Source of the DNA: Spizellomyces punctatus DAOM BR117
Taxonomy: Eukaryota
Assembly: GCA_000182565.2 (NCBI GenBank)
Contig: KQ257471.1
Length of the DNA stretch: 52,598 nt
Reading direction: 5' to 3' (one strand)
In this document: positions 3,422 through 47,492 of the stretch, in pieces
How the letters are laid out: each line of letters begins with the position of its first letter
How positions within the stretch are numbered: position 1 is the stretch's first letter
The notes under the pieces: model-generated
Seen by the model: only the letters and a program-made list of their open reading frames with translations
Databases searched by the model: none
What the model was told of the DNA's origin: nothing
Made by a program: the position numbers and the translations under genes

Positions 3422-3731
3422 ATTTTTAAAGTGCAGTGTTATTGCCCCCCGTCCATGCCACCCTGCGAAGCTACTGGCGTAATACAATGCTTGCTCAATC
3501 GTCTGCGACAGTTTGTCTGCCACTTAACGTGATGAGTTGTCTTAATAACCGCGCAAGGGATCTCATTATCATCAGTAGCCAGCAAGTCGGCTTCAGGGGC
3601 CTGACCGATGAGACACTGGTTGCCAGTAGATTGACAATGTGAAGGACAGTAACGTGCGTGCAAATGGTACAGTCTATCGAATAGCGGAAGTGAACGTAAT
3701 CCAGAGAGTGGCTTAGCTAGGTGAAATCAAT

Positions 3732-4600
3732 GTGTGGAGGTGATTGAAAGTGGCACTAGGACCCATTATTATCCGGATTAATCCGGTTAATCATATCGCA
3801 TAATCAGCACCCCCATCTATCGCTCAAAGCGGTGTGGCATGCATGTAATGTTTTTTTTTTTTAAACTGCAGTGAGGCGCATGCTGAAGGTCTATAAAAGG
3901 GGACCTGCTCCCTCTTTCCTCTTTACCCATCCTCGACTCTCAAACCATCTGCGCAAACGCTCATCACGACCCACATCACAACCCTCATCGCGACTCGGTC
4001 AACCATGAGAATGCAGATGTAGTGGTGCCGAGGACCTTGCCCACCTGATTACAACCAACTGGAACCAGCGCAGCCTCGGAACCAACAAAGCTGTTATTAT
4101 GCTGCCACATTAGTTGAGCTTGGTTGGTATGTACTGATTGCATTTTGTCATTCTGTCATTCATCTCGCTGACATGCCATTTTTTGTAGTCTCCAAGCCTT
4201 GTCACTGAAAATCCCCCAGCTTGTGACGCTGCCCAGTCGATTCGCTCCTGGATGCAAGAGTCTGGCTTCAATGCCATCAAGAGTTCTGGATCAAGGCCTA
4301 GTAGGGACCGCGTGTGGTGGTGGGCAATCATCCGGTTAGAACCAACCGTTACGTATTGCGTGTATAATTGCCTAGTAGTAGCTTAGCTTTTCCGAACCAG
4401 TTGTCGCCGGTTTATTCCCTGGTGTACAGCTTGTGCAGATAAAGATGGTGCATCACGTGAGTCATGTGGGGGTCTAGAATTCTAGTCTACACGTCCAAGA
4501 TTCTTGCTGGTGCGGCGGCATGACCCCCACATGACTCACGTGATGCACCATCTTTATCTGCACAAGCTGTAGCTAGTGCCAGTTTCTGTCACCTCTACAC
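3732..4600 (+). mobile_element. Non-autonomous TIR element, Fanzor 'ghost'-like, copy A (contains nested MITE)
   Basis: 28-bp imperfect TIRs (left gtgtggaggtgattgaaagtggcactag; right reverse complement gtgtagaggtgacagaaactggcactag; 24/28 match), TA at 4601-4602, and close similarity along its length to 29105-29813. Confidence 0.88.
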
Positions 4601-4617
4601 TAATCGTGCGTGAAAAT
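4386..4617 (+). ncRNA. Putative Fanzor omegaRNA of copy A (scaffold 4386-4602 interrupted by MITE; predicted guide about 4603-4617)
   Basis: gcttttccgaaccagttgtcgccggtttattccctggtgta[MITE]tagctagtgccagtttctgtcacctctacacta; same layout as the other two copies and as the SpuFz1 scaffold recalled from the literature. Confidence 0.7.
4427..4569. mobile_element. 143-bp MITE, Tc1/mariner-type (Stowaway-like)
   Basis: Perfect 48-bp TIRs (4427-4474 and 4522-4569) starting CAG, flanked by TA (4425-4426 and 4570-4571); absent from the homologous site in copy C. Confidence 0.93.
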
Positions 4618-5290
4618 AGAAATGTCAGTGCCACGGAGCATTGCAGCCAGTTGAATTAACCACATTTATTGTGACATCAACCTCATGAAGATAAACAAAA
4701 AGACAGGTCCAATATGTGTGGCCATGAACGGTGCAATTACTATCCCTTGCGGTCATCTATGAGAGGAATATTCTGCAGTTGCCACCTGCATGATGCTCCA
4801 TGACTCAATATATCCACTCTTTTTCTATATAAACTCCCCCTCTTCTTCTTCCCTCTTGTCTCTTTATCCCTCGACTCTCAAAGCATCTGCCCAACGCTCA
4901 AGTCTCAAATCCATCATGAGAATACTGCTCTGGTGCTGAGGACCTCATCCACCCGACAAAACCAACATAATCCCTTGCAAACGCTGCTATTACTATATTG
5001 CTACGATCGCAGGTATATCTTGCTGATTTTTCCCACGTGCATATTCCCAATTTTACGTAGTATCTGAACATCCTCCGACCCAAAAAGAGCTTTGGAATCA
5101 AAGGCTTAGTAGGATTTCTCTCGTGGTGGTGGGCTTAGTTACCCGGTTGACCAACCGTTATGTATTGCATGTGTAATTGGGCCCAGTCGTAGTTGGTTGT
5201 AAGGAGGGAATTACTTAGCTTTTCCGGGCTGGTTGTCGCCAGTCTACCCCCTGGTGTCTTGTGTTGTGACTTTTGTTATTGCCAATACAC
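4606..5290 (+). mobile_element. Diverged Fanzor 'ghost'-like element, copy B (left end approximate)
   Basis: Shares with copies A and C, in the same order: TATA plus CT tract, cctcgactctcaaa, catgagaat, gaggacct, intron, gtggtggtgggc, ccaaccgtta.gtattgc and the 3' ttttccg...cctggtgt...tacacta end. Left TIR is only weakly recognisable. Confidence 0.75.
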
Positions 5291-5307
5291 TACCAGTAGC
5301 GACTCTG
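5218..5307 (+). ncRNA. Putative Fanzor omegaRNA of copy B (scaffold 5218-5292, 75 nt; predicted guide ccagtagcgactctg)
   Basis: Hairpin ggctgg-ttgtcg-ccagtc and closing stem tggtgt/acacta; stem changes are compensatory relative to copy C. Confidence 0.7.
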
Positions 5308-5387
5308 ATGCCGTAAATGCTTACATACTGTCGCCGTTCCAAAGTATGCATCACTGACAGTGGTTATAGAGGTTTGCTGATAGAGAG

Positions 5388-8300
5388 ATGTCCGACGACG
5401 AGGCCCCGCATTCCAAACCAGTAGATGACGCGCCAAATACTGCAGAAAAGAAGCAGGGCATGGCGGCTCTGTTTCACGGAGTGGAAAAATCGGCGGCCGA
5501 AATCGAGAGCGATGAAATCCGGAGAGAAAAGTCGCGCGTTGCAGCAGCTTCCATAGCAGCCGATGTGCGGGAGCGTATCGCTGGGTCTGGGCTCGCTCTT
5601 ACAACAGGAAAAGGAAAGAGTGTGGTGGAAGAGCAGGAAGCAGTTACCAAGCAAGAAATTGATCAAAAGCCCTCCGGCTTTAGGACTGATATCGTAAGTA
5701 TATTATTGAAGTTGATCGTTCACTCATAGCTTGAGCTCATGGCTTGGCAGGTTGATCACCGTCTCAGTCTAGCTAGTCTTGCCGACAAATATTCCACGAC
5801 AATTAATTCTCGGAACCCATTGAAATCGCAAGGGCTTTCACCAAGAGATATTGTTGAGCGAGCGAAGCGACATGGACCAAATGCACTTACACCGCCCCGT
5901 CGTACTCCTTGGTACTGGAAGTTCTTGCAATGTTTGGGCAATCTTTTCAATGTGCTTCTCGGTGCGGCAGGAACCGGATATTTGATAACTTACGCAATCA
6001 ATCAAGTGGACTACTTTGAAAATGTGAGTATTTTTGCTGTAAATAGAGTGTATCTATTCTCATGCTCTCACAAATACAGGCATATATCGGATGCATCCTA
6101 ATTAGTGTCGCGTTTATTAACGCAGGTATCGAATTTTATGAACTTCAGAAAATCGCTGCAATCTTGGGGTCGTTCACAAATCTCATTCCCGCGCAAGCGG
6201 AGGTGATAAGATCTGGACAACTGAAAACTGTACTAGCACAAGAGATAGTCCCTGGAGGTCGATACAGCATTCGTACGCTTGGTAAATGACGGGTTTTGCT
6301 GATATCCACTTCGTTGCAGATATTGCAGTGATTCGTGCCGGCGCTAAAGTGCCCGCAGATATGGTGTTATTTAATAGCACTGATTGCAAGGTAGACATGT
6401 CCAGTCTGACTGGAGAAAGCGATCCACTAGGTCGGACTGCTTTGGAGAATGGGGCTCCACCTGATGTCGAAGCGATTGACGCTCCCAATGTGGTGTTCAA
6501 CGGAAGTGTTATCGTGTCCGGCGAAGCTTATGGAATTGTCATTGGGACAGGAGATGCAACAGTTCTGGGAAAGATTGCCGAGCTTACCAAGGCCGAAAAA
6601 AAGCGCCGTTCGCCTCTCTCCTCAGAGATACACCGCTTTTGTCATACAATATCAGTGCTTGCCACTATCACCGCTTTGATATTCTTTTTATTTGCGGTCG
6701 CTCGCGGGCGTAACTTTAACTACGCATTAACGTTCGGGATCGGAATTCTCGTTGCGTGGATTCCTCAAGGGCTAGCGGTCACTGTCACGATGTTATTGAC
6801 GATCGCAGGAAGACGCATGGCGGAACGGAGCGTTCTGGTAAAGGATCTTCACGGGGTTGAAACGCTCGGTGCTGTTACGATGCTCGCTACAGATAAAACC
6901 GGAACTCTGACGAAGAATGAAATGACAGTTGTTAACTTGTACACTAGCGGTGTTGTGTGGTTCGCGGGACCTGGAGGCCCGAATGAGTGTCCGGTGGGAG
7001 AAAGGCCTTTGAAAATGGATGGAAGTGGTATTCCCCAGATACTTCACATGAGTGCTACATGCACCAGGTAAATGGGTTAAGGTTTTCGATGGGGTTACGC
7101 CTTGTACTCACGGTGGAAAGCGGTTTATTGCCAGAGCCCGCTTTGATCGAACGGATGTTCCGTTGGAGCAAAGAGTTGCATTGGGCGATGCAACAGAAGC
7201 AGGGCTTTTACGATGGGCTGGATCCAGGCTGATGAACATAGATAAGGTAAGATTGAGACAAAGGTTGGCAGTTTCCGCCTCGTTCTAGTTTAAGTATAAT
7301 TGATAATTGCCCAAAGCTTCCAGTGTTGTACCCCAAAGTATTTGAAGTTCCCTTTACCTCTGATACCAAATGCCACATCTCCATTCATCGGAAGGGACAC
7401 TTGACGGGCGGGCTTACCCTTCATATGAAGGGCGCACCGGAAGTTGTTTGGAAGCGCTGTAGCACCGTGTGGATTGATGGAAAAGCGGTCCCCATAGCTG
7501 AAACTGATGAAAAACGGTTTGTAGATGCGCATGCAAAAATGTGCGCAAAAGGACATAGAGGTATATGACTTGAATTCAGACCACAAGCGGAGTTGTACGT
7601 TGACTTGGCTAATAAAAGAGCTCACTGATGCTTGTAGTGTTGGCATTCGCGATGCTGCAGCTCCACGGGAAGAAGTATCCCGATAACTGGAAATTCGACA
7701 AGGAAAAGAATAACTTTCCCACTGTAAGGCGACTTGAGCAAAGCAACGTTTTCGCGTGTTGAGAGTTTTTACAGCCTAACCAGCCAATCTATTCCTTGCA
7801 TTAGACAGATCTGACATTTGTCGGGCTTGTTTCTCTAGAAGATCCACCCAAAACTGGCGTACGCCAGGCGATTGGGAAAGTACGTGGTGCGGGGATAAAG
7901 GTAGTTATGGTTACTGGCGATCACCCGTTAACAGCAGAAAGCGTTGGAAGATCCATCAACCTTGTCACTTCTCTGTCTCCCACGCGGCTCTCGTATCACG
8001 ACGACCTTCCTGTTGCACGTCCTATCCGAGATCGGGACAACACTTCGTGCGTCATTCTAAGTGGGTCGGTTCTCCCACATTTGACTGATAGCGACTGGCT
8101 ACACATACTTCTTCACGATGAGGTAGTCTTCGCTAGAACCTCCCCAGCACAAAAATTAGACATCGTAACTCGAGCACAAGCCCTAGGGCATATTGTTGGC
8201 GTGACAGGGGATGGTGTGAACGACGCTGCCGCGCTTAAGAAAGCAGATCTCGGAATAGCCATGAATAAGACTGGAAGTGATGTAAGCAAGGAGGCAGCTG

Positions 8301-9919: not shown

Positions 9920-10480
9920 TGATTTTCATAACATTTTAATTGATGCGAAATGCCTGCGAAAGTCTCTCAGCGATCGGAGCAAAGCATCAACATCTGGACA
10001 CAGGAGGGGTTTATTGAGTGGTCTCCGAATAGGCAAGATTGTAACTACTGATAGCTAGCTGAGCACATCCGCAAGCACCAGCTAGAAGATCATCGTTCGC
10101 GTGTGGTGAAAAGTGTCGTTTTGACAGTGTGTTTACGGAAGCCGTGCTTACGTCAGCGTCGGGCTTAGCATAAACCGAGCCAGAGTTCCACTCTTCTTTT
10201 TCCCCTTACCAGGTTTTGATATCGTCGCCAAGAAACGAACACTTAGATTTTGGTATGGCAAGGACTATATCCTACCAAAAACGAAAATCTCACATCTTCA
10301 TTCCTGGCATCGGGCTTGCTGGACAATCCGTACCTGGATCAAACACCAAATGGGATTTTCTTTATTAAGAGTTTCTCCAACATGATTCCCAAGAATTCCT
10401 TCAACCTCAGATCATGACTGGAACACAAACTTCATCTGAAACTGAGCTCTCATTCGATTCAAAATGTTCAAGGATTGACA

Positions 10481-11210
10481 CTAACTTATTTTCAGGCGTT
10501 GTAAACCACATGATGGGCAGAATTTGTCTGCCGCTACGCCGAATGAATGCCCACAATCTGCGCAGAATTTTGCCAGTTTCCACCCATCGCCCCCTGCTCC
10601 ATCGGCAGCACTCGCTACATCATCTCGTCCTGCAGCCAGTGAGACGCCACTTGCTTTCCCAGGGCCAACCTTTGCTTTACTAGCCGCAGCCTTCGGTTTC
10701 GAGGTTAATTGTAGTTTTGACAGGGTCTCAATGGTTTTGGTGGGTTGGGGTATCTCTGGCTTCTTCTGACGCTCTTTGGCAAAATACCCCCCTGGTTTGC
10801 AGCTGCGCAGGTGAACCTCAAGTCGATCGCGCAGGAACTAGCAGAGAAATTGATCAAAATGATATGTCTCGTACTTGCCGAGATTCAAATTATCGTCATA
10901 CCTTTCTAGAGCAATTTGGACATTCTTCCCGGCCTTGGTCCATAAAAGTCGCAAAGGCAGCATCGTTGTAATCCTGTGTTGACAGGCCCCCTACGGCGAC
11001 TGCATCGTTCCCCGAACCCCCCGCATTTGGAGGACGGGGTCTGGGACGTCGCTGCTCTTTCGGAAGCAGGGCGTTCCTAGCATCCCATTTCGCGAGACAT
11101 TGCTTTTCGTGAATGGCGAGGGATTTTGAGCCAAACTCTCGGCCACATATGTAACACACACGGGTGAAAGGATTGCGGCCCTCAGCCTTTGCAGCAACTC
11201 TAGTGTCCAT
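10481..11210 (-). CDS. C2HC zinc-finger protein, ZNF474-like, with C-terminal double zinc ribbon
   Basis: RVCYICGREFGSKSLAIHEKQCLAKW, ECPNCSRK (continuing after an intron as FLRDRLEVHLRSC), and terminal KFCADCG...KFCPSCG; stop at 10481-10483. Confidence 0.82.
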
Positions 11211-11505
11211 CGCTGCTGTCGTAAGAGAAGACTAGAGTATTGCGGTGGGAGCCTAACTTGCCATCAAATAATACTATCCACCATGATGTCACACCCAGTC
11301 AGTCTGAGGGGGAAAAGCTAAAAATAGCCAGTTATGCGCGGCCCGATCAAAGATAGGTCGTCTGTTGCATTTACATGTTAAGTATTAAGGGGTAAAGACA
11401 CAGAGAAATACAATTCATTTAATACACGTTTGTCGCTGTCTTTCGTCGGCTAATGGCTGACTTCACCCCTAAACATTCACCTTTATATCAGCCTGGTTTG
11501 CTTTA

Positions 11506-14500
11506 TCATCCGGCATTTAAAACACTACCTCGTCGAGCCACTCTAGTTCCCATTACGATATGCTGATCCTCGTTCAAGCTGGCTATTGCCGCGGCATGCG
11601 AAAAAAAATTGCGGGGAATATACTTTGCAGCTGTCCGGTTTGAAGGAGCAGCATTTGCGATGGACTGACGACGACAACAATCCCAACGGGTAAGCAAAGG
11701 GTAAGTACTGGTGCTTGCCAGGACTCGCTTACTCTGGAATCATCAAGCATTGCTGTGTGCGGACGGTGACGACGTAGGCCCGCAGAGGGCTGCCTTCTAC
11801 AAACGAACCTTAAATGATCAAGACCTACAATATACTATTGGCTTTGTTTTTACCTTGCCGAAAATGGTCGCGGTGATGTAGCTCTAGTCCGCTGTGCTTG
11901 TATGTCGGCCACATCTGGCGTCTCAAATAATACATGACGGGTAGACTTGAATCTGCGATCAGCTGTAGGCGACTATGCCGTATGATAATCGCAATATACC
12001 TTAGACGGGGCCACGGTGTCAAGCACCTCGTGAGAATGGGAGCCCATACTCCGAATAGGTGGTAGCCGTTTCGAAAGATGAGTGTTCCCAGTTACGGAGG
12101 TAGAAGGCCTAGATGACTCCCTATGCGCGGTATTAATATGGTTCACTCGACTCAATCTGATAGCACTATTGCTAGGTACCAGGCATTTGACGGAGCGATC
12201 CTGGTTTGTCCTATTCCTATGCTTAAGAAAGTGAGGTTGCATCAAAATACTACCGGCGGACAGAACTATGCTTTGTGCGTTAAGATACTGTAATTTAGAC
12301 TAGTTGGATAGCTTACCTCGTCCCATATATCATATCGTTCAAGGCAGTGGGGATGGCGTTGACTGTCGCAGGGCCAGGCACAGCTGGTAATGGTAATAGT
12401 CGCATGCCCGGATTGTTTCTGAAATGATATCCTGTCAGGGAAGAGACTACAGAAATTTGGAAATCCTACCAACCGCTTCCAGTTGTGCCCGCCTTGTTTT
12501 GGTGCGGCGCTTTGCAGCCTGACAGCATGGCTCTGGTGCTGAGAATGATTGAAGACATCTGCAATACGTCCAGACGTGGGACGCGCGGATGTTGGCCGCG
12601 CAGACACAGTAGTTCGTGCAGACGTTGGGCGCGCAGATGCCGGGCGCGATGTTGACGACGCCTCTAAAATGAGCAGACTATTCGCCGGAGTTACAAAAAT
12701 GTCGTGCCTTTTGAGCAGATAGACACTTGTGAAGGTCCGTTAAGGTATTACGAATGAGCAGATTAACGAAACTCACGTCGCGCGAACACGAGCTGAGGAT
12801 TCCCGCTTTTGCAGTGAAACCGGGCGAATTGTGATGGCACTGAGTAGGCCATCGTCGTCGCTATCATCCTGAAACAGCATTTCAGGGTACCCCAATCCTC
12901 CTTGTCCACTGGTCGCGTGGACATTGTCGTGTTCATCCGCTTCTGAACCTCTTAGTGCTAGATGGATGGAAATGTGAATGTTTAATATCCTTCAGCATTG
13001 AGTGTATACCATCTCGGGGAAAGTCTGTCACAGTGGTACTTACTGGCGGACAATGCGTCAATAAGTGGATGGAACATGGGAACCAACTACAAATAGGTGG
13101 CAGATCGGCTTAGTGGAGCAATGGTCATCTGGGTATTAACTTGGGCGGAGCACTAATCCAACCCTGACCTCTTACCTCCGACCATATGTCATCAAATATA
13201 TGTCCTACTATATCCTGCCGAATGCTGGCATTTGGTGTCATTGGAGGTATAGCTTGACGTTGATGTGAGTACCGTTTAATCTTTTTATCCTCTAGGTCCT
13301 CGGCACTTTTACGTGTTAGTTAGCAGAGAACAGATTATGGGTGGTGACCCAACCAGGGATGACACATACGTTTGAGTATCGCACGCAAACCACTCATCGA
13401 CTTCGCCGTTTTCGGCAAAGACTTCTTCGTGCTTATGGTTGACGCACGGCGTAGCGCCATCGTCGATCATCGTCAGAGAGGACATCACTGATTCCGCGGG
13501 TATTCTCAGTAGATCTTCGAACGAAGGTACCAAATACTCATATAATGCTACGCTGTTGAGGTCGTGGTCCTATGAACATGCTCAGTACCTGTCGACGCAG
13601 CCTCAGCCTGGAAGTCTCCATCATTAGGAGAGTCTGTAAAAATCATTACCGGGAGCATCATCAATACGTCATAAATATTCACGATATGGGTTGTCTGAAG
13701 GGGCGCAGTGTCCAAAGGTGGAGTCGAGATTTTCGTGACGTCCAACTTGAGTTCACTTGCGCAGCTTCCAGGGTGGTCAAAGAGTTTTTGCAAGCCAATG
13801 AAAGCTATGGCCCAATCCGCTACGGTGGTCTTGCACAAGCTAGCACAAGATTCCACGCGGAATGATAATAGTGCAAAATACTGATCATCTTGCAAATCTC
13901 TTAGATGATTGCCTAAGTGTTTCTTCAGTGCATCTACACCGCCAGGTCCATTCGCGAAGAGTTCAACGCTGTACGTCGTATCGGGTATCGGTGAAAACTC
14001 CATTGGAAGATACGAAGGTTGTGGGTTTGGGTTCTCCGGTGTTGGAGTTGGACAGCGATCTTCCTCCTCCTCACCGATTCCTGCTTTTCCCTCCTGCCCG
14101 TGGAGTGTTTTAAAGTATCGAAAGATCAGCCTGGATTCGCGTAAAATGTACAGATGTTTTAGATAGAAGATTAATAGGTTATAGGAATACGATCGTACCA
14201 GCGAGTGTGCCCATTTCGTCGGTCATGATTCAGCAATCCTTTTATAGCTTCTTGTACTTTAGGATCCGACCAATCAAACAAGCTCCTTGCATAGTACGGC
14301 CAATTTCCGTTTGGGCCAGTTGGCTCTTTCGCGTGGTCATAAATCTGATCAACTGCCTCCAGCATAAATTTTCGAGCAACAATATCGTTACTGAGACCAA
14401 TTCCTTCAACAAAAGGTAGCGAGTCTGGGTAAGAGGCATGGCACGGCTTTGGTGAATAAAGGGATGCTGAGTTGTGCTCAATTGGATTCTCAGGAACAAA

Positions 14501-15175
14501 AAAATATGGAGAATGGCATCGAAGTTCACTCCTCGGTATAATTTCATACCCCAAATCTTTCGTGGGGAGAATCTGATGTCCACGTACACTGTGACCGGGC
14601 GCATATGTTCATTATAATCAAAGAACAGTTTGCGTATTTGAAGCGCACTTACCGCAAATGGGGGAAAAGGGAAGACCATTCTACGCATTCCTCCATCAAT
14701 TGCTGATTACCAATGAGGGTATCGCTTTCTATCGGAAAACAGGAAGACGCAATGTCAGGAGAGAACATCCCAACATCCTCCCAAAACCCACTGCCCGTAC
14801 CATGATATAGAAACGTTTCGAGTTGCTCCAACATCTCTTCGACCTGGGATGTAGCGTGCGCATCGTAATCCTAGCAACAAATGCCCAACTAACTTCAGTA
14901 TGGAGTTTTTCGTCATTATTCGCTCAAGTTCTGTGCTCATTCCGGCCTTTCCATATTTGCGCCTCATTTACACTTAGTGCAGCTCACATGTTCAACATCA
15001 TCCCAAGAGGAGCTCACAGTACTGACTACGCTGGAAGGTGCATAGTCATATATTCTCTGCGATATTGAGCCGGATGATTGCCTGGAAATAATGCCTTAGT
15101 TTTAATTGCAAGGATTGTCCCAGGTGACAAACTCATGCTAACCAGCGACACGCACGTCTGGGAACAAGTGTCCAT
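11506..15175 (-). CDS. FAM149-like (DUF3719) ciliary protein, multi-exon; both ends approximate
   Basis: Spliced translation gives SSWDDVEH/DYDAHATSQVEEMLEQLETFLY, EECVEWSSLFPHLRVRGHQIL, EEVFAENGEVDEWFACD and IPPMTPNASIRQDIVGHIFDDIWSEV, which match FAM149A/B1 blocks in order. Linking the 11506-13000 low-complexity exons to this gene is inferred. Confidence 0.72.
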
Positions 15176-15711
15176 TACAACTATCACGCCATATGGGCTC
15201 AAAAGGCGGTCAACCAGTTCCAGAGTACACGTCGAAAGCAGTCAATACCGTCTGCAGGTTGGTCAAGGTCGTTGGTGAGGTCTCCCATCCAAATCCGCTG
15301 CTACGTAAGCAAAGATGGTTGATTAGCTTCACATTCCAAAGGCAGTGGCTGGAACCAACAAGTTTGCCAAGGACAAAGTGTGAGATTCGTACTTTGCAGA
15401 TGCCACGTACACGAGAGGCAGATCGACGGAAGCCCTAGTATGCGGGTTTAGGAGGGTATTCATACGCATTCGACAAATGCTTGGGGTCAAGCGTGTGGAA
15501 GACATCTGCCAGGCTGGTAAGTCTACGTTTGCAGGGGATAGTCCAGACTTTGGAGACCCGCGGCAGGCACTTTGTTGCACGTTTCTAATTCTGTCAGCTA
15601 TTAGCCGCGGCGCTTGGACTGGTTGCATACGGGAACTATCTTTTTGGGCAATCTGGATCCATATCGGTTGGCGGTGGTGCATATCTTTTTCTTGGACTGG
15701 CGTTCTATTAT

Positions 15712-18508
15712 GTGTCGAATCACTACCCATCTACCAAGGGGTCTAATGTTGTGAATTATGCTGGAGGCACAAAGGGTTTCCATGCATTGAATGCATCGCC
15801 ACGGGCCGTGTTAATGTGCGCAATTCTGGCGTTGACAGTCATCAGTGCGGAGATCCACCGGCGCCTCGACATAATCAAAATACGACATGTGGAAATTAGG
15901 GACGCTATTGGACACAAGCCAGAAGCATCTCCGTTATCATGTCGTCCCATCGCACAATTGGTTGGCCGCAGGTACGATGCCATATACCGAAATTCAACGT
16001 ATTTTGACCCAGGGGCTTCCTTGGCGTGCGAACCTGCGGGGTGCCCTTGTCTGCAGGGAGTTGCGCGCAGACGTGGAACGCCAAGATGTCATCTCTACCG
16101 GCAATATGACAGACCATTTGACCCCTCCAAGACTGGCTTGTATGTTGCTGAGTACTGGTTCAAATGTGGAGTGAACGGGAAGGGAAAGGACTTGGTGTTT
16201 TCGTCGACTGTTTCTCGAATCCTACATGTTCGAGACCGACCATCACTGCAACTGAGGAGCCTTGGTGTGGATCAAATAACAGTCGCATTCCCAGAAGCAG
16301 TAGCCCGTGATAATAAAGGGGACCTACGGTTCAGTGTTGCACCAACCGCACTCGGTGGACTCGATCCCAGCTCCTTCCAAAGTCGAGTAGTAGATGGGAA
16401 TGGTATCACATTGGCGAATATTATCATAGATGATGTCCACGTCGGTGCTCCTATGACTGAGGCAGCTTTGCATGCTACAAATCAAGATACATCTAAAGCG
16501 ACGTTCATTCTCCACCTCCGTCTCCCCGAATATACAATACCGATTAACCAGTGGCCCGTAAACGCAACGCTCGAAATGTGGCCTTCGCCTAGGGCTTGTT
16601 TTGATGCCCAGTACCCTTTCGCGCCATGTTCACCGAAGCAAGTACGCATATCAATTTTTCCTCCACCCATAGCACGAGCATGGCTTAAACATCGCGTGGA
16701 TGCAGTCACCTTGGTTGCCCGTTTCGCATTTTCCGGCACTTTTATTACAAAGACGGGTAGACAAATGGCACTGGCGGAGTCGTTTTCAGTAACTCTCGCC
16801 CAGCAGACAGCTGGATTCTTTTGGAACAGCCGAACTGTTCGCACCACGCTGGACATTCTGTGGCTCCGTCACGCGACGCTTCCGACGGCGCCAGGTGCTG
16901 ATTTTACGAAAGAAGAGATCGAATATGATATTGCAATACATTTACCACGGGAAAAATACAACACCGGCGATAAGCTCATATTGGCTGTCCGCGAAAATGC
17001 CCTAGTTGGAGCTGGTTGGCCTCATTTCCCAGTATGGAGCGCCAATGCAGAGGTGGAACTAGTCAAGGGTGAGAAACGAACTGCATCCTGCATGTCGAAA
17101 TCTCATGATAGCATGGCTCATTTGTGAATCTTAGGGTTTTGCTGCTCGGATGAGCCTCGTCGCTCCTATCGCGTGGATCTTGCAGCCCATTGCCATCTTC
17201 CCGGCAAGTTCTACGCCAATGCAAACGCATGTCCGCAAATAGGCGCAGTATCCCAACCCCCCGGTGGTTTACAAAGAAAAGCGCTTCCGTCTGCGCGTCT
17301 GCAACTGATTGGACCACGAGTTATGGTTTTGTACGCTGGTGAACCTTTTGTAGATCCTGGGGTCAGCATTGTCGGTCTGCAGGAGGGCGTTTCCGGACAC
17401 AAACCGAAGGTCATTACCCGATTCGATAGATCATTTGATGCCGCAAAGCCTCGGGCGGGTGTCTTCGTACAGACATATCTGCAGGATCCCGTAAACGATG
17501 ACCACACGTCGGTAACCCGAGTTCTCTATGTGCGGCATCGTCGACCAACTGCGGCTCTTGTCGGCTGGTACGAAAAGTTGACGGCACGGAACGAAATGAG
17601 TGAAGGCAACAGGCGGGGTATGATCGTAATACGGTTCTCGTCGCGCGTGAACATCGATTTGGATTCTTTTGCTATTTCGATCAATGGATCTGCTGTGGAA
17701 CCATTGAACATCAAATATCATAATGATACCGATTTATGGGACGTAGAACTAGATTACCAAAAAAGCAAAGGGGCGTGGAGAGAAGGGACCAGCATTGCTG
17801 TCAACATAAATGGTGATAAATGTACGGACGCTCGGCCGCCATTTGGTAGATGCGACGTGAATCAGCGCCTAGAAGCCATCACAGGGCAAGGTGTGCATGT
17901 GATCGGGATTCAGGACACAAGGTGGACCGCCGAGCATCTTGAGGTTACAGTCCAATTCTCTGACGAGGTCAAAGGGGTGTCAGGAACCGACATCGGTCCG
18001 GAGGCTTTTGAGGCCTCTTTCGTTCACGCTAGTGACCGTATCGTGAGAGACTATCAGCCCGCATGTCGAATTCCGGGTGCTGGGTTGGAAGTGATGGGTG
18101 TGGAACGCGTCCTTGGCCAGCACGTTGTCTACAGTTTAAGGATTCGCGGCGCAGTGCTCCAATCCGATGCATGGAAAGGTGCTGTCATAGTAGCCTTGCG
18201 GCCTGGAAAAGTGGTAGCGTCCAATTTTGCCGGACTCATCGTTCCTTGTTGGGCCTCTGTGGTTGACGGTAAGTGAATCCATCATGCTTGTCGAGAGTAT
18301 GTGGAGGCTGACTCATGATTCAGGCCAAGCCAATACTCCAAAATCCTCGATCCAAAGTATAGGATACGAGTTTGCTCTTGCACTCGTTGCACAGCTTGTC
18401 AAGACTATATTGCTTTTCAGCACGCTTTATGTTTGCATCTTTGGAGACGATCATCTTCTAGCAGGTGCTTGGGGAAGTGCCTGCATTTTGATTTTGTTCT
18501 TAGCTTAA
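15712..18508 (+). CDS. Uncharacterised membrane-anchored protein with repeated Ig-like (DUF5011/HYR-like and Big-like) domains; multi-exon, start uncertain
   Basis: Long ORFs 15712-17127 and 17173-18276 joined by an intron. Two repeats (QLVGRRYDAIYRNSTYFDPGAS...VSRILHV; QLIGPRVMVLYAGEPFVDPGVS...VTRVLYV), beta-rich VTVQFSDEV/IVIRFSSRV segments, and hydrophobic stretches at both ends. Confidence 0.55.
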
Positions 18509-18710
18509 TTTGTTACAATTGTTTTATGTTGTATAAGCGTAGATTGTTATTAGGTTTATTTTCGTAGTATGCTGTAACAGCAGATGGAGTTAATCATCTG
18601 TTACAATTCGAAGCACATGAAGAGTTGCTTATGTAAGCCTGGCGGGGTGCTGAAGCACTTAGTTTGGTTCACCTTCCCTCGGCCTCAGCACTGAATGCAC
18701 TAGACCACCT

Positions 18711-21097
18711 ATGGCGGAAGCTGTAATTTCATCCGGTCGGGTTGGTACTCCTACTCAGTCCCATGACAGAATAGTCAGCATAGATAACCAGAACGAACAG
18801 TCCGAGTCCGATAGTCAGGATACTGTGAAAAGCCTTGAGAGGAGAATAGTTGAACTCGAAACCCAGCTCAAGGTAGCGTTGTTCTTACAGCGCCTTTTGC
18901 ATCCCACCTATTCCCTCGAACCCTTCATGCTTTTTGCTTGAATTAGAATGTCAGCGAACAAAAAGAGAAAGAGTTGGCCCTCGCAGCGGAAACTATTACG
19001 CGGAAAAATGATGTGATTGACGTTATGCGAATAAAGCTGAATCGGTACGAGTTTGCAATCAAAGAAGCCATTCTCTTTCTGGGAAAGCCAATGTTGAACT
19101 TTGAGGAATGGCTGACGCGTGGAGGAAAGGAGTCCTTCAGTGGGGATTCCGGCCAAGCTGAGCATTCCCGTATCGCCTCAACTATCAGCAAATCCAACAA
19201 CGATAAGTCTTTGCCGGCACAGATGGCAGAGAAACAACAAGCTCAGCAGGCTGCAAACTTCCAGCTGTCTCTGACGTCCGGCTCAAAAGCAATGTTGCCA
19301 GGCGGCGCAACACCGTTGGAAGTTCAGTGTATGGAATGTCTGCGCCTGGCGTTGAATTATCTAAAAAGTGCCCAGATGTCAGTTAAGGCTGTGTCAGAGC
19401 CCAAGCCACCAGGCATTCAAACTACTCAGGATCTGGAGCCTCTGCCTCGATTGAATGGTGAGGCAGCACATGCAGAGTCAGCGTCCCCCGGCGACGGGGC
19501 ATGGCCCAAACTATCTCCTTGCAGAGAAGAGGAACCTGAGCCCCCACGGCTTGGTACAGCTTCAAGCGATACAAAAGGACTTTTGTCAACCGGAAATATG
19601 TCACAGGCAGGGTTACAATCTGGTCGATCATACTCTTCTGCCTCAAGCCATGAAAGGAAGATTTCAGCTCAAAAGGCCGCTGCAGCACTTTATCATGCTG
19701 CTACTTCTCTACCAGAGGATGACGAGAGCGATCTAGCAACCAATCCATCGAGGAGTACTGGAACAGCCCCAAGCACCCCAACGATCAGTAAATGCCACTT
19801 CTGCCGTGACAATATGCTACAACTACACCACTTGCAGGATACTATTGACGGTCTCAAGCTTGATATCACGGATCTTGCCGATCAATTAGAGGAGGAACGC
19901 GCCATAAGGGATAGACTACAGCTGAGCAAGGACATTTTAGATCAAGAACTCGAGGAGCTTACTGCTCAACTGTTTGACCAAGCGAATCGAATGGTGATAG
20001 ATGAAGCAAAAATGCGGGATGAACTGGAACATTCTAATCGCCAATTGAGGGGCGAGCTGAGCGAGGTAATGCAAAATTTTAGAAGACGGGACGACGAATT
20101 ACAACAGCTGCGTCAGTCTCTACGGGCACTAGAAGCTGCTAAACTACGCTCAAGCTCTGTTACCAACCTTACCTCTGCTGCTGGTTCCAGTTCGCCCCTG
20201 GGTTCACAATCCAGCCTTGCCACTTCTGGCCCTCCTCTCCGTCGTGACAGTATTATGCGAAGGTCATCAGTAATTGTTTCCCCGCATGGCTCTTTCCCAG
20301 TCCTAGGCATCAACTCGTCCTCAACCATCCCAGTCGACGGGATCATCTTCTCAGAATTTCAGGAGCATGTAAAGGAAACCATGAACTCGAACTACCAACA
20401 AACACCCTCTATTACAACTCAGTTCTTTAAACGGTGTATGGCGGAGGATGTCGAACCATGCCTATTCTACGGGTACCACCTGGACGGAGGTGGGATATTC
20501 AAGCAAACACAGGGCCTAAGCGCATCAAGCAAAAAGAAATTCCTGGAAAACATATCACGGGGATGGTGTGAAGTGGTACCGCATTGGGCAACTCGATCGA
20601 ATTCTTCACTTGCGAGTAAGATATCACAGTCACCTTCCTCACCATCACCGTTGTCGGGTGACATCGCCTCCCAACAATCACAGCGACCAGCAGCTCGTAC
20701 AAAATGCTATGCTTGTACGTTGATCCGAGATTGTGATTACAAAATCCGGTTTGTCCCCCCAGCGCCGAGCACATCGTCTACAACCACAGGATCCGTTTCC
20801 TCATCCTCAGCAACACAAACTTCCTTATCACCAGATGCGGCGTGGCAACCTCTATGTCGATTTTGTAGGGATCGAATTCTTGCGGTGCTTGGTTTCTTTG
20901 CATTTTTGTCGCATTTGCGTGATGGGGTGAAGCACGGTGCGACGATCCTTGCGATGTTCCGACAAGTCCTATGGTTGCGAAGGCGTATGGCGGGGTCGAG
21001 AATAGGGAGTACTGCATTGTTCGATGGGGACGCAGACGGAAACTGGAGGCTTGAAGCAGGGGGTGATTGGGAAAAACTGGTGCAAATAATGCCGTGA
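18711..21097 (+). CDS. SEC2: Rab GEF of the Sec2/Rabin8 family
   Basis: Coiled coil with DILDQELEELTAQLFDQANRMV (Sec2p domain), FFKRCMAEDVEPCL, CYAC and LCRFCRDRI C-terminal motifs; one intron at about 18873-18946. Confidence 0.85.
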
Positions 21098-21197
21098 TCT
21101 CATAATATTGATTTTGTTTATATCTTGGCTTCCTGGATAGTGCTGCACCTATATCATGGATGGCATGCCCAACTACCAACCTATGCACATGGTATTC

Positions 21198-24100
21198 CTA
21201 GCACGAAACTGCCACACCCAATCCACCGACCGATGTCCCATCCAACATAGGGAATGCATTTGCAACCAATTCACAGGTTGCTTTACCATCAAAACTATTC
21301 AAAACTTCCATACCAGCAGGGATAAAGTCTTCGGGCTTCCCTCGTCCTCTCCAGTGTTCAGCCATCCACTTAGGAATCTTTCCTTCCCGCAGGGTTGTTG
21401 CCCTAGTCCCCTCTGTTGACAATTGCACTCCCTGTCCTCCCATGACTGCCCATAATGACAACCACACGATATCCTGTCCGTGACGGCAGTTGGCGGCCGC
21501 CTTCAGCACACCCACAGCGCCCTCTGTAACTTCCTGCGTATACCATCGTGAATTCAAGAAGGGTACTACACTAGTTACTATCCTAAAGATACTATTGTTT
21601 GACATCTGGACTCTAAGAAGTAGCTCGGCCATAGTGGTAAGGGACGCGACGTAGACTTTCATCTGTTGTGATGTTACCACCCGATGATGTACATCGCGAT
21701 GTGCTCGATGCGACCCTTCCTTCTCTCCCGCATATGTCCGCTCAACAGCCCTCTGCAAACTTTTTGCAAGGACTTCAAACCGGGGGATCAGATCGTCCGC
21801 CACCCGTTTGACAACAAAATCGGGCGACAGACGACACATGGTTGCCACAGCAATTAATGCTTCAAATACGACGTAATGTTCCTCATCTCCCAAGCGACGG
21901 GTAATGATCGGCCAGAACTTGTGAATGGTTGGGTTGAGATCGTTCGAGCGTAGGCGGAGGATAGCGAGAGAACTATGAAAAATGCGTAGGGATTGGACCC
22001 GAAGTCTCGGGTTGGCACTGGAGTGGTAATGGTATAACTTGTTGACGATTTTCAGAGCCAATGACTGCACATGAGACGGAGGTCCTACTCCGTCGGCTCG
22101 CTCATCGCTTGTCCCGTGCATGTCGAATTTGTCGCCACTTTGGCCTAGGTCATCCGGTGACGAAATCGGTCTGCCAGGGGATGTTACTCCTTCAAATTCA
22201 CCACTTTTGCGGTCCGTGAAGAATTTTTCTATGTCGCCAATCGATGCCTGTCCGCGGTTCTGCTGGTTCGGTGTTCTTCGCTCTTCAACGGACGGCTTGC
22301 ATTCAAGGTAAAATCCAAGCATTTCTTGCGAACAGGCAGAGAGTTCAAAAGGGGCTCGCTCATCGATTATTGGAGCAAGGCAGACACTTTCACTTCGTTC
22401 ATCCCTCGAGGTCTCTTTCTCCACGGGTACACTGGCATCCTCACACATCACGTCCATCAAGGTCTTAAGAACTCCAATTAGATTGAACACGACTAGCCCA
22501 TTTTCATTGTGCCAATGATCCAAAGCATCCAAAATTTCGTCGACAGAATCATCCATGTAAGGAACGATATGAATACCTGCGATCCGGATTGCCGCCTTTA
22601 GCACGAGTGGCGCTCGTGGATTCTGCGCAATGTAGCGCAAGCGTCGTGATACAATATTCACAATGTAGTCAACATTCTGAAGAATCATTTCGCGCGGCCC
22701 TTGCATGCTATCGCTCGACGGTTGAGTGGATTTGTGATACTCACAAGCTTCCGCGACGGCAATTAATGTAGCCATTGCCGAATCGCTTACAGTTCGATTC
22801 GGATCTCCAACGTTTTCAAGTATTGCATAAAGAGTATCCATAAGCAGTAAGCGAAAGTCGGCTCCAGCCACAGCAGCCATGACCGCTACGCCTTCAAGAA
22901 TAAGACTAGTTTTCTGGATGACGGCGTTAAAGGTACCACTCATCGGAGCACTATCCGGCTCATTCACGAGATAATCGGGGTTCAATCTTCGAAGGTCCTT
23001 GAGAAGCTTCAAATCAGCAAGATTTGTCGGAAGTTTCAGTATGGGTGAGTCAAGATATTCGCGAACTACGGATTTTATAATTGGCATCATAGAGGCTTTT
23101 CTGTCTTCTGACCCATTGGAATAACTGAGAGCTTCGACTCCTACACCCGCAGCACCAAGACATATTTCATTCAGAATGTAGATCGCTTGTGGCTGATAAT
23201 CCCCGAACGCTATGGAACGTAGGTGTCCCAAGAAATGGTCTACCAGAGATTCTAGATCCCCATAGTAGCCCAGTAGGCGGCACATTTGGCTGATAGCCAA
23301 AGTAACTTTATCGTTACGGAAGTACTGAAATCGCTTTCGCGGAAACATGTACGCAAACCGCTTGAAATCTTTTCCGGTTGACGGTTCACTCCTCTCCGGA
23401 ACTTCAGACGCCATATCCATGATGGCAAAGCCAATGCTCGACTCTGCTACCCGATCCTCTACCAGCTTGACTTCAGAGCTATCAAATGTCAAGATCTTAA
23501 GCAATCCAAGAGACACATGATTCATTACAGCTCCCAAGGGCTTGTTGATTTCTCCCTTTAAGAGCATCAAGTAACCGTTTGCGATATGAAGGGATTCTAG
23601 TTTTCTGCCATCATCAGTCTGCATCATTTGTCGCGGTAGCGTCATCATGTAGGAGAAGAAGGTCTCTTTCAGGATGGATGTTACGGAATATTGGTCGCGT
23701 ATTTTAGCGGCTACGACTTCAATTTGCGCCCGGCATTCGTTCGCCACCAAGGGGTATTCGTCATTGACGTAGCACAGCAACGTTTCAACCAACAGCGGGA
23801 TGGATAACCCAAGGGAACAAGAGCAGTGCAGTGCCACATTGGATGCAAACCGCAAGAACCCCAGACGTATTTTCCACTGATCATGACTACGAATCGTAAA
23901 TATACGAGTAAAGAGCTTATTGAGACGTATAACGGTGTTTTTGTGCCAATGGGCATCCCTAACTATATATGGTTTCGGTTGCGGTTCTGAAGAATCTGCA
24001 ACGGTGGCTGGGGCGTGCAATGGCGGCCTCAAATTCTGTGCCCGATCATCCATCGATGGAATTCGCTGAGCCAGCTCGACCAGATCAGCCCAACTAGGTT

Positions 24101-25014
24101 TTTGCTTCGGAAGTAAGTGTTCGCAAGCGTCATCACTCATGACTAATACAATAGTCTGGAGAAGTAAATTCAGACATCCAACGATGATTCGATGGCTGTC
24201 CTTTGCGTCTTTCGTTATCGTTTTGGCCAATGTAGAACTGATTCCCGGTAAGAACTGAGCAACTATATCCGGCTCGCGCAATTGCTGCACGACACGCGAC
24301 AACGTGTCTATAGCGGATACTTGCAGACGCAAATTCCGCTCCTTCTCGATCAAGTCCAATAGAACGACTACTACGTGTGCAACAGCTGGCTGATACTCTG
24401 ATCTACTCAGCTCCTTATCAGTCGTATCCCTTATGGCTACCCTGTCTACTTCCTCGCACTGTTCATTTTCTACCGTCGGGGGTACCGCAGGTTTCTTTAC
24501 CAGGGCCAGCAGACACCGAACGCCGAGGCCTTTGACCTCCTCTGATGTTCCTCTCCCGTTTCTCACTGCCTTCGATACAGTTCCTTGAGATATTATGAAC
24601 GGTAAAGTAACTAGCAGCTCCCGATAAAGTTGAAGCGGCACTGCTTCACCCGGACACATTTCCAAAAGGTACAGTAAACATTCGAGACCGCACTCCAAGG
24701 CACTCAAGGAAGCCGACGGGTAGCTGAAAAGCTGCAGAATTGGAAATGTGACGTATTCAACTAGACCGCCCAGCACGCTCGCGCCGCATTCGCTTGCGCC
24801 AATGACGTGCAGCATATCGAGCAGAGCCACGAGCCGGTTGTTCGCATCTCTGGTTGTAGTTGTCCAGCAGTGGGGATTCATTACGTCCACGCATATTGGC
24901 TTGAGCTGAGCAAGCAAATAAGGTTAGATCAAGAAGACCTGCTTTGGTATTGCCGTCTGATAGCACCTGCTTGAAAGCTTCACGCCTTCGAGATTCTAGT
25001 GTAGCTGAATCCAT
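21198..25014 (-). CDS. TTI1: TEL2-interacting protein 1 (TTT complex HEAT-repeat protein)
   Basis: RREAFKQ/LKPICV, LVEYVTFPI, FLPGISSTL, WKIRLG, LMDTLYAILE, ILQNVDYIVN, PTIHKFWPII; 1239-aa ORF plus a short first exon. Confidence 0.85.
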
Positions 25015-25123
25015 GCAGACCCAGAGGACCTTTAGTAGTTCAAGCTGCCCCACACTATCTCGGGACCGTTCAACTATGGAAGCACCATGCGATAGCACTA
25101 GCGACTACTAGCAGAAGAGGCCA

Positions 25124-25142
25124 TAACCCTAACCCTAACCCT
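25124..25142. promoter_or_regulatory. Three tandem TAACCC telomere-type repeats in the divergent TTI1/LRRC40 promoter
   Basis: taaccctaaccctaaccct within the 250-bp intergenic gap; function is inferred. Confidence 0.5.
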
Positions 25143-25264
25143 GGATGTCAGTTGGATTCCAATTCAACTTGATAGCGTAAGCGCATTGGAGCCGGCTCAT
25201 TCGTGTCAGCGTCAGACCCTCTTTCTCGGAGTACGAACTTTTAGCAAGTTGTCGTATTTTCGCC

Positions 25265-27320: not shown

Positions 27321-27699
27321 TCAACCGATCGATGAAATCTACTGAGACTGTATTCTCATTAGCATTTTCCCGCGTACAGAATGGGTCAGACTTCCCAGTA
27401 GGATTTTCTTGGGGTGGTGGGGATGTGTAAATGATGACTTGAAGAGGAATGCGACCAAAAAATCTGTATAAAAGGGTTGATAGCGTACATAGTAACCACA
27501 GTTATTTATTTTGTTGGAGTTAAACTAGTTAGGATACTTTTAGGGTGGTTGTCATCAAAACATCTACTAGATATGTGTCGATACTGGTGCTTTGCAAGCT
27601 ATAGCCTACCAGGGCCTCCTCGACCCGACCGTTAGTGTCTAAAATATCAATGTACAGCTATCTGTTGCATCACTTGAATGCCCATGAATGAAGTCTATG

Positions 27700-28720: not shown

Positions 28721-29104
28721 CTTACTTCAGCATCGGAAAGACAAAACTGCTAGCGGGGTTCCTAAACATAAACGAGAGTGGAAGGATAAAAATGAGGAAA
28801 GGACGAGATGCCAGAGCAAGAGAGAACAAGATCAGGCAAGTGTTTTAATGTATGTCAGTCACCTCGTGGGCTATTATGGCGTGCCCCGAGTTGATGATGG
28901 CAGGGAGGGTGCACGACCGAATTCTGCATGAAAGCTTCCTCCGAAGGAAGATTCAGTACATGTGAACATCACCCTACGGTATAGAACGTTTACGTTGCAC
29001 AGGACGACACGCAAGGCAATGATACGGATGCATTTGATCATGCTTTCCGTCAACATCTATTCGTCACGACCGTAGGATACCTAGGACATCATCTGAACCA
29101 CATA

Positions 29105-29813
29105 GTGTGGAGGCGATTGAAAATGGCACTAGGACCCATTATTATCCGGAGTAATCCGGTTAATCATATCGCATAATCAGCACCCCCATCTATCGCTCAA
29201 AGCGGTGTGGCATGCATGTAATGTTTTTTTTTTAAACTGCGGTGAGGCGCATGCCAAAGGTCTATAAAAGGGGACCTGCTCCCTCTTTCCTCTTTACCCA
29301 TCCTCGACTCTCAAACCATCTGCACAACGCTCATCGTGACCCACATTGCAACTCTCATCGCAAGTCCATCATGAGAATGCAGATGTGGTGGTGCCGAGGA
29401 CCTCGCCCTCCCGATGACTACAACCAACTGGAACCAGCGCAGCCTCGGAACCAACAAAGCTGTTATTATGCTGCCACATTAGTTGAGCTTGGTTGGTATG
29501 TACCAATGGCATCATTTCATTCTGTCATTCATCTTGCTGACATGCAGTTTTTAGTCTCCAAGCCTTGTCACTGAACATCCTCCAGCTTGCGAGTCTCCCC
29601 AATGTTGTGAAGACTCTGGCTTCAATGCCATCAAGAGTTCTGGATCAAGGCCTAGTAGGGACCGCGTGTGGTGGTGGGCAGTTATCCGGTTAGAACCAAC
29701 CGTTACGTATTGCGTGTATAATTGCCTAGTAGTAGCTTAGCTTTTCCGAACCAGTTGTCGCTGGTTTATTCCCTGGTGTAGTAGCTAGTGCCAGTTTCTG
29801 TCACCTAATACAC
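29105..29813 (+). mobile_element. Non-autonomous TIR element, Fanzor 'ghost'-like, copy C (most intact)
   Basis: CATA at 29101-29104 immediately 5'; TA on both sides (29103-29104, 29814-29815); imperfect TIRs gtgtggaggcgattgaaaatggcactag / ctagtgccagtttctgtcacctaatacac; homologous to 3732-4600; no transposase or nuclease ORF. Confidence 0.9.
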
Positions 29814-29830
29814 TAAGCATGCCTATTGGA
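29740..29830 (+). ncRNA. Putative Fanzor omegaRNA of copy C (scaffold 29740-29815, 76 nt; predicted guide agcatgcctattgga)
   Basis: gcttttccg-aaccag-ttgtcg-ctggtt-tattccc-tggtgta...tacacta: perfect 6-bp hairpin plus a 7-bp closing stem; resembles the SpuFz1 omegaRNA as recalled. Confidence 0.78.
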
Positions 29831-29990
29831 CGTGCAGGTCGAGTATTTGTTGCAAATGGACCACAATTGAGCACATGGCACATTCGAACCAAAACCTTAT
29901 CAAAGTTTTCCGATCGTGCTATGACTCATTTGGAAGGCCCGTCAGATTGTTGCGGCCATTCTCGACTATCTTCTTGGATGGCGATTAAAA

Positions 29991-32148: not shown

Positions 32149-32785
32149 ACCACTTAATAAAACTCTTGTCAAAATTACAATTGAGTGCTTAGCATCTGGC
32201 GACGTCTTGACACGTCATGCTAACCAGTTGAACTATTTGTTGAGAAATTCTGTAGGATCGGTCCTTTGTTGCTAATTCCACTACAGTTCCCTTAAGACAA
32301 TCGGAGATCCTGATGCCTGTTGACTTTGGAAAGCCGACATATATAGTACCTGACCTGTCCACGTTAGTGTGGGAAGATGCTGCAGCAAGAAAACCATATA
32401 TCCCTATTTGTTTGGACATAGAAACGAAATCCACAACGACCAACTCAAAGCTTCGTATTCTCTCTCTGGGAAGATTTATTAACAACGCTGCGCTTCCGTC
32501 TGGTTTTGCAAGGTAGGTTCCTCAAGATCCCTGCATATCCTGCGCAGCTGTAACGTCTCTTTGCACAACTAGCTCTTGTACCATTCTTGGATTTGAATGC
32601 ACATCCCTCGTTGAAAGAGATAAAGTGCATATGATAATTAGGAACGAACCCGCACGAATAATTGTTCGGAATACGGTGACAGGTGAGCAATTGCATGGCT
32701 CGACATACTGTGCATTCGTTCATTCTGTTCGCATCAAGAGGCGTGGAGGGCTGTGCTTGAAATTTTAAAGGAAAAGGGCGAAGCA

Positions 32786-47419: not shown

Positions 47420-47492
47420 TGCTCCCTTCGTGGATTGAACACGAGACCTTTAGATCTTCAGTCTAACGCTCTCCCAACTGAGCTAAGGAAGC
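47420..47492 (-). tRNA. tRNA-Phe(GAA), identical inverted copy of 45472-45544
   Basis: Exact reverse complement; A-run at 47395-47400 gives the Pol III terminator on the minus strand. Confidence 0.96.

Follow-up and report, generated by a model that had tools for sequence, protein, structure and literature searches.

Probable ghost Spu-1 elements in a Spizellomyces genome end in a Fanzor-type omegaRNA scaffold with compensatory changes in stem 1

The window, meaning the whole stretch of 52,598 nucleotides analyzed here, contains three short related elements (A, B, and C) among ordinary genes, which include those for a P-type ATPase, an arrestin-like protein, an LRR protein, Sec2, and TTI1. 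Pfam scans of 29 ORF translations from the window returned the families P-type ATPase, LRR, arrestin, Sec2, TTI1, and POT and no TnpB- or Fanzor-type domain. The Sec2-like protein is 94% identical to a protein of Spizellomyces sp. 'palustris', and its next match is to Powellomyces at 55%. A frame of 894 codons (15589-18276, + strand) with a single in-frame stop at 17125-17127 gave no Pfam or PDB sequence match and has no Fanzor look by eye. Two tRNA-Phe(GAA) genes with identical Rfam scores lie in inverted orientation ∼1.9 kb apart (45472-45544, + strand, and 47420-47492, - strand), and ARAGORN reported, at 39573-39657, an odd tRNA whose anticodon has four bases.

The feature common to the three elements is a module of 74 to 75 nt, present in three copies in the window, all on the + strand. 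A 20-nt pattern, CTTTTCCG-N6-TTGTCG, has three exact + strand matches, at 4387, 5219, and 29741; a further match on the - strand carries two mismatches and is spurious. Chance predicts 0.36 matches to this pattern, and none of 100 shuffled sequences reached four. Each module forms the 3' end of an element of ∼700 bp that has inverted repeats of ∼32 nt and flanking TA and that lacks a nuclease gene. The elements span 692 to 873 bp, or 692 to 730 bp end to end when a MITE (miniature inverted-repeat element) in copy A is left out. Copies A and C are ∼90% alike across ∼710 bp, and B is a diverged copy of the same unit. The elements and their parts are as follows, with scaffold positions numbered as in the published structure, in which position 1 is C1 of CUUUUCC.

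3730..4602, + strand: element A, probably a ghost Spu-1 element of the C type, with a MITE inside; 5' junction CAAT, not CATA
3892-3898, + strand: TATA box of element A, conserved with C
4005-4126, + strand: short exon-1 ORF of A
4127..4188, + strand: intron of A-type elements, 62 nt, GT..AG; 919 + 5 reads skip 62 bases
4387-4602, + strand: copy A module, interrupted by the 143-bp MITE
4387..4426, + strand: 5' part of the copy A scaffold (stem 1 with one A.C mismatch, linker, start of stem 2)
4427..4569, no strand assigned: MITE of the TIR type, 143 bp, in distal stem 2 of copy A; ∼50-bp helix; flanked by TA
4570..4602, + strand: 3' part of the copy A scaffold (remainder of stem 2, which is the 3' inverted repeat)
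4601..5292, + strand: element B, probably a diverged ghost element, 692 bp; abuts A, with the TA at 4601-4602 in common
4826-4833, + strand: TATA box variant of element B
4916-5012, + strand: short exon-1 ORF of B
5013..5060, + strand: intron of B-type elements, 48 nt, GT..AG; 379 reads skip 48 bases
5130..5185, + strand: conserved block upstream of the B scaffold, counterpart of 29675-29728
5219..5292, + strand: copy B, putative omegaRNA scaffold, 74 nt
5293..5307, + strand: presumed guide of copy B, placed as for copy C
29103..29815, + strand: element C, probably a complete ghost Spu-1-type element, 713 bp; TA at both ends; CATA at 29101-29104
29263..29269, + strand: TATA box of element C
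29371-29495, + strand: short exon-1 ORF of C; the three ORFs have M-R ... W-C-R-G-P-R-P-P-D ... C-Y-Y, common to diverged subfamilies
29496..29554, + strand: intron of element C, placed by homology to the A intron
29675..29728, + strand: conserved block upstream of the C scaffold, probably structured, with three helices
29741..29815, + strand: copy C, putative omegaRNA scaffold, 75 nt, assigned from its fold and its nucleotide-by-nucleotide agreement with the published description; stem 1 = 8-27, linker = 28-33, stem 2 = 34-75
29816..29830, + strand: presumed 15-nt guide of copy C, from the published 14- to 15-nt extension

In the terminal inverted repeats of C, 24 of 32 columns agree (5' end against the reverse complement of the 3' end, counted by hand on the alignment); those of A are similar to those of C, and those of B are weaker. 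The 5' junction is CATA in C and CAAT in A, and directly upstream of B lies the end of A (AC-TA). C carries TA at either end, and A and B carry it at the 3' end; without an empty site, duplication and repeat are indistinguishable. A loose contig end from another B-type copy, lying before 4612 at the 5' side of element B, reads ...CATAGTGTG. The elements contain no transposase, such as the DDE enzyme of Tc1/mariner-type cut-and-paste elements, in which TA is the target-site duplication. No ORF of at least 80 amino acids (ATG, GTG, or TTG start; table 11) lies wholly within A or B, and the short-ORF pieces of element C (exon 1 and exon 2) showed no Fanzor similarity and no meaningful match to PDB sequences, which are expected to include the SpuFz1 complex. 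What the unit does contain, besides a TATA box and the start of a short ORF, is an intron bearing fungal-type signals and a 3' stretch of 200 nt that is well conserved; a CTAGTAG-like motif, akin to the inner part of the inverted repeat, recurs in the conserved upstream block.

Elements A and B are directly joined head to tail, and it appears that the terminal TA of one ghost element was the exact insertion site of another. Since B starts at the TA that ends A, A would have the inverted repeat of B as its guide. The MITE of copy A occupies the part of stem 2 that is reported as dispensable in the cryo-EM paper discussed below. Copies that are free of the MITE read TAGTA at its site, which could be an excision footprint. 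Two sub-threshold Rfam matches to miRNA families (4441-4555) reflect only the MITE hairpin.

Pairing within the module is regular. The minimum free energy fold consists of stem 1, six unpaired nucleotides, and a stem 2 in which the internal UGGUGU pairs with the terminal ACACUA. On the + strand the B and C modules each fold into two hairpins (z = -3.7 and -4.0), and folds of the same modules on the - strand are much weaker (z = -1.35 and -1.31). The arms of stem 1 are AACCAG/CTGGTT in C, GGCTGG/CCAGTC in B, and AACCAG/CCGGTT in A, the last with a single A.C mismatch. Between B and C all six pairs are kept. Both sides differ, with Watson-Crick pairing retained, at pairs 9-26, 12-23, and 13-22; pair 10-25 is A-U in C and G.U in B; and pairs 11-24 and 14-21 are the same. 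The loop, the 5' CUUUUCCG, the CCCUGGUGU block, and the terminal AAUACACUA are invariant. The identities of B to C by segment (C numbering) are as follows.

Positions 1-8: 8/8 identical between B and C
Loop, 15-20: 6/6
Positions 34-39: 6/6
Last nine nucleotides, 67-75: 9/9
Stem-1 arms: 5/12
Distal stem 2: 11/27

A preliminary description of this DNA, made from its letters alone, had reported the three compensatory swaps and one G-U wobble in stem 1, the mismatch in copy A, and the invariant blocks around a freely diverging stem-2 interior, and all of these held at the same positions. It had also given lengths of 75 and 76 nt; the near equality stands, and the published numbering gives 74 nt for B and 75 nt for C, so that the start at 5218 was one base early.

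Rfam recognized only the two tRNAs when the whole window was scanned at gathering scores, leaving the scaffolds unmatched, and E-value scans of 3600-5500 and 29000-30000 also gave no match on the scaffolds. A metagenome scan with a pattern anchored outside stem 1 returned no matches. A second, on the scaffold invariants, returned two, both in prokaryote-like coding DNA with unpaired arms, and these are therefore chance matches. A snoRNA or other cellular noncoding RNA gene, a Helitron end, a hAT element with an 8-bp duplication, and a small secreted-protein gene were considered as identities for the unit and dropped, given the inverted repeats and the match to the literature.

That match is to the Spu-1 family. 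SPu-1 was described as a transposon of ∼2.1 kb with 33-bp inverted repeats, putative TA duplications, and one ORF, the first Fanzor (Bao & Jurka 2013, PMC3627910), and Table 1 of the same paper lists three Fanzor1 families for S. punctatus. Ghost Spu-1 was the name given to 134 loci that have the repeats and lack the Fanzor ORF (Saito 2023, PMC10432273). According to these accounts, the inverted repeats are 30 to 33 nt with putative TA duplications (PMC10432273, PMC3627910), CA is conserved upstream of the 5' repeat of the ghosts, the TAM is CATA, and the conserved region is 'around 550 nt' (PMC10432273). A 75-nt scaffold around the 3' repeat is followed by a variable guide of 14 to 15 nt, which gives an RNA of 88 to 90 nt; SpuFz1 binds this RNA, and ghost scaffolds support editing, including in human cells (PMC10432273). 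The cryo-EM structure is described as two stems with a 6-nt linker and a dispensable C40-G70 region, and the SpuFz1 scaffold is reported to have no pseudoknot (PMC10432273). More recently, 126 unique ghost scaffolds (gst1-gst126) of 74 to 76 nt were reported in several clades, including small divergent ones; the collection was clustered, representatives were tested, and one was engineered (Nat Commun 2026, PMC13434818).

The elements of the window share with the published ghosts, as described, the absence of a gene, inverted repeats of ∼30 nt, the CA/CATA 5' junction, the presence of many copies, the host genus, and a 75-nt 3' scaffold composed of stem 1, a 6-nt linker, and stem 2 (PMC10432273). 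No difference from them is demonstrable, the lengths being 692 to 730 bp here and 'around 550 nt' for the published conserved region. With gst1-gst126 the window copies share the length range of 74 to 76 nt, and the division into sequence clades (PMC13434818). The collection was used for scaffold engineering, as the preliminary description had proposed for copy B.

Comparison with the canonical SpuFz1 omegaRNA can be made nucleotide by nucleotide, as the structural paper names 16 nucleotides that contact the protein: U5, C6, C7, U16, G17, U18, C19, G20, G22, A29, C32, C34, U35, G37, A72, and A75 (PMC10432273). Copy C has the same letter at the same number for 11 of the 16 (U5, C6, C7, U16, G17, U18, C19, G20, C32, A72, and A75), and 15 of 16 agree if one 1-nt indel between positions 20 and 28 is allowed, which adds A29, C34, U35, and G37; C32 of the canonical scaffold still faces C after the indel. 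G22 has no counterpart in A, B, or C. Copy B has the same letters as C at every aligned contact position, with its end shifted by one, and the two copies are identical at positions 1-8, loop 15-20, C31-U39, and the last nine nucleotides. The likeness to the canonical RNA thus comprises U5 C6 C7, the loop U16-G20, a linker ending in CCC, the U-G-G start of stem 2, and A72/A75, together with a distal stem 2 that is free to vary in both. The window copies differ from it in having one nucleotide fewer between 20 and 28, no G22, and a U-A pair in place of C40-G70; moreover, the canonical omegaRNA lies behind a Fanzor ORF, whereas the window copies do not. The invariant blocks of the module are the nucleotides that the cryo-EM text reports as touching SpuFz1, and the free interior of stem 2 is the part reported as dispensable. 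The divergence between B and C and the MITE of A fall in this region (C40-G70).

Taken together, A, B, and C are very probably ghost Spu-1 elements (probability about 0.9), on a comparison with the published ones by description and by named nucleotides rather than by letters. The preliminary description took the 3' end for a selected structured RNA with a link to Fanzor, and this is likewise supported by the anatomy of the 75-nt scaffold, the contact blocks, the dispensable stem 2, and + strand transcription. This is no new kind of system; earlier publications cover ghost omegaRNA loci, the structure of the scaffolds, and the engineering uses made of them.

The arrangement has a bacterial parallel. 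In TnpB omegaRNA and in PATE-type nonautonomous derivatives of IS200/IS605, the guide RNA scaffold overlaps the right end of the transposon, the guide of the TnpB omegaRNA is flanking DNA, and gene-less derivatives in bacteria keep the RNA. Compared with these, the elements described here are distinguished by a eukaryotic host, inverted repeats, flanking TA, and probable Pol II transcription with an intron, and the published SpuFz1 scaffold differs by its lack of a pseudoknot.

How far the compensatory changes by themselves argue for selection on RNA was assessed with the B-C alignment. All 34 proposed pairs are paired in both copies, and 5 of them changed on both sides; when the partner was slid by one to three columns as a control, the number of both-side changes was 0 to 1. 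If 7 of the 12 arm positions of stem 1 had changed independently, the survival of all 6 pairs would have P = 0.005 to 0.012 at a transition fraction of 0.5 to 0.64, as measured in the same alignment, but this figure is weakened because all of the changes are transitions and a CpG palindrome is involved, in which deamination on the two strands tends to give matching changes. With only two independent lineages, the pairing statistics alone are suggestive, not decisive.

A mutational explanation would make the compensatory pattern a by-product of CpG deamination in a DNA palindrome and the hairpin a DNA-level feature of the transposon end. Each of the 7 stem-1 differences between B and C is a transition, a palindromic CpG of the CCGG type underlies two of the three double changes, several of the A-C differences are TG/CA pairs of the kind left by CpG decay, copy A and the read variant AACCGG (seen in 6 reads) resemble intermediate states, and under a transitions-only assumption the probability of keeping all pairs is 0.16. 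On the other side, all three copies retain intact CpGs in CUUUUCCG and UUGUCG. The G.U pairs and the far better fold of the + strand favor RNA over DNA, two more compensatory pairs are found beyond stem 1, in helices upstream of the module, the stem is present in the solved RNP structure (PMC10432273), and the family is abundantly transcribed. We consider the mutational explanation very improbable. Selection at the RNA level is supported by the kept G.U pairs, the good fold on the + strand only, the intact unpaired CpGs, and the upstream compensatory pairs.

An equally improbable alternative is that the last ∼200 nt are kept only for the needs of transposition at the DNA level, as an inverted repeat and subterminal binding sites, with the RNA as an unused by-product. 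The 3' inverted repeat does lie within the module, the CTAGTAG-like motif recurs in the conserved block, and no Spu-1 transposase is known according to the discussion of PMC10432273. DNA binding sites leave the paired changes and the G.U pairs unexplained, however, and use of the RNA is demonstrated by the published pull-down, cryo-EM, and editing data (PMC10432273).

The preliminary description further proposed that copy B could serve another Fanzor subfamily. In this case, the same genome would encode another Fanzor1 paralogue to which B-type scaffolds are dedicated, and changes in stem 1 would have gone together with changes in that protein. The arguments for this are indirect: three Fanzor1 families are listed for S. 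punctatus (PMC3627910), B and C differ strongly in stem 1 and distal stem 2, and with SpuFz1-v3 editing was poorer for ghost scaffolds that are distant from the canonical scaffold (PMC13434818). Such dedication is unlikely all the same: the alignable nucleotides that touch SpuFz1 are identical in B and C, and the changes are confined to helical arms and to the part of stem 2 without protein contact. The proposal thus found no support, B retaining every alignable contact nucleotide, as C does. Its companion suggestion, use in guide engineering, is not new, as natural ghost scaffolds have been screened systematically for this purpose (PMC13434818).

Transcription was examined with RNA-seq run X7, which carries the same species label; ∼6% of the run, as raw 60-nt reads, was used and placed on window positions 3600-5700 (A and B). 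This is ordinary rather than small-RNA sequencing and shows long transcripts, not the 88- to 90-nt species. Of 26,394,413 reads, 268,098 (1%) fell on this region, and in nearly all of them the first mate was on the + strand. Over the 3' 200 nt the depth was 10,000 to 34,500 (24,000 to 34,500 across 4239-4451 and 10,000 to 24,000 across 5091-5303). The P-type ATPase gene, which starts 96 bp downstream of copy B, has a depth of 0 to 1.2 (5375-5700), and the reads on the elements are therefore not DNA carry-over. Both introns are spliced as GT..AG on the + strand, so that the RNA of the family is + sense. The MITE is skipped by 1,170 + 32 RNA reads from MITE-less copies, and the RNA depth inside it is 3.6. 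Onset of the + strand depth is ∼30 to 60 nt downstream of the TATA box. Low-level reads in the opposite orientation (depth, 58 to 176) at 3813-3954 and 4736-4877, immediately upstream of the TATA box in each of A and B, look like divergent transcription from the element promoters.

Few of these transcripts come from the window copies themselves. At position 5271 the letter of B is present in 55 of 16,522 + strand reads and another letter in 16,467, and at position 4021 the letter of A is present in 3 of 908 + strand reads and another letter in 905. Since most reads differ from the window copies, the family is very active and the A and B loci are at best marginal contributors; the B locus of the window is at best marginally expressed. 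The depth drops to ∼3,000 at 5247-5248. The 362 reads that join B-like upstream sequence to A-like stem 1 indicate that the B version of stem 1 is a minority form among expressed copies. A multicopy family fits the contig data as well: two contig runs of unrecorded kind, probably DNA (X1 and X3), gave 237 and 226 pieces on the 2.1 kb of 3600-5700, and the summed word depth in X1 was 40 to 565 on the elements and 2.8 to 4.1 on the flanks, depth not being equivalent to copy number. A further run, X8, gave no placements.

Reads extending past 5292 (7,030; median, 16 letters) carry a flank unlike that of the B locus, with a consensus of AATCACATG followed by a run of A (agreement, 0.72); no pile-up of read starts or ends was reported. 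The run of A could mean polyadenylation ∼9 nt past the scaffold, a distance shorter than the 14- to 15-nt guide. An A-rich flank in a dominant copy would give the same picture.

Conservation extends upstream of the scaffold. In a block of ∼55 nt, 21 pairs are proposed, and all are paired in both B and C, two of them with the compensatory changes mentioned above; RNAalifold also pairs the 5' CUUUUCC of the scaffold with the upstream GGA..AAGGC. The exon-1 ORF has stops in A (4020-4022) and B (4937-4939) that are private to these loci, with a sense codon at these sites in ∼99% of the RNA reads (4021 A>G; 4937 T>C). The reading frame of exon 2 is not common to the B and C types.

The TATA box, the intron that two diverged subfamilies keep and splice, the exon-1 ORF, and the covarying ∼55-nt domain lead us to suggest, tentatively and at a little under even odds, that ghost Spu-1 elements are complete Pol II guide-RNA genes and not mere deletion leftovers. 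If so, the omegaRNA would arise by maturation of the 3' end of a precursor resembling an mRNA, with the upstream domain as a naturally occurring 5' extension of the scaffold. Nothing on transcription of ghost loci was found in the main texts of PMC10432273 and PMC13434818; the main text of the former makes no mention of an intron, polyadenylation, or a TATA box and refers to promoters only for U6 and GAL constructs, and a literature search found no further paper on ghost loci. The Pol II unit, with its TATA box and intron, and the further covarying domain upstream of the scaffold are possibly not yet in print.

We propose the following. (i) A Spizellomyces genome, most simply that of S. punctatus, would carry A, B, and C as short gene-less derivatives of Spu-1, whose full form is a TA-flanked transposon with inverted repeats that encodes the RNA-guided nuclease Fanzor1 (SpuFz1), and the window copies would belong to the published ghost set. 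(ii) The last 74 to 75 nt of each element, including the 3' inverted repeat, would be the omegaRNA scaffold. This RNA may be excised from a longer Pol II transcript, spliced and initiated at the TATA promoter of the element itself. From the literature, the scaffold and 14 to 15 nt of flank would form an RNA of 88 to 90 nt that is loaded onto SpuFz1 in trans for cleavage next to CATA. (iii) Protein contact may keep the blocks invariant, and the arms of stem 1 may be free to change provided that pairing stays, so that B would represent a diverged subtype of scaffold, minor but still compatible with SpuFz1. The anatomy of the elements, the pairing with its covariation, and the + strand transcription and splicing of the family were observed directly.

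A reader of the sequence alone recovered a real RNA-guided system from covariation, and the constrained and free positions agree with the solved structure. If the Pol II guide-gene reading is true, the guides of a eukaryotic relative of TnpB would come from abundant, spliced Pol II transcripts of mini-elements, which bears on the supply of Fanzor guides in vivo, and the extra structured 5' domain would bear on why 5' extensions improve editing in human cells.
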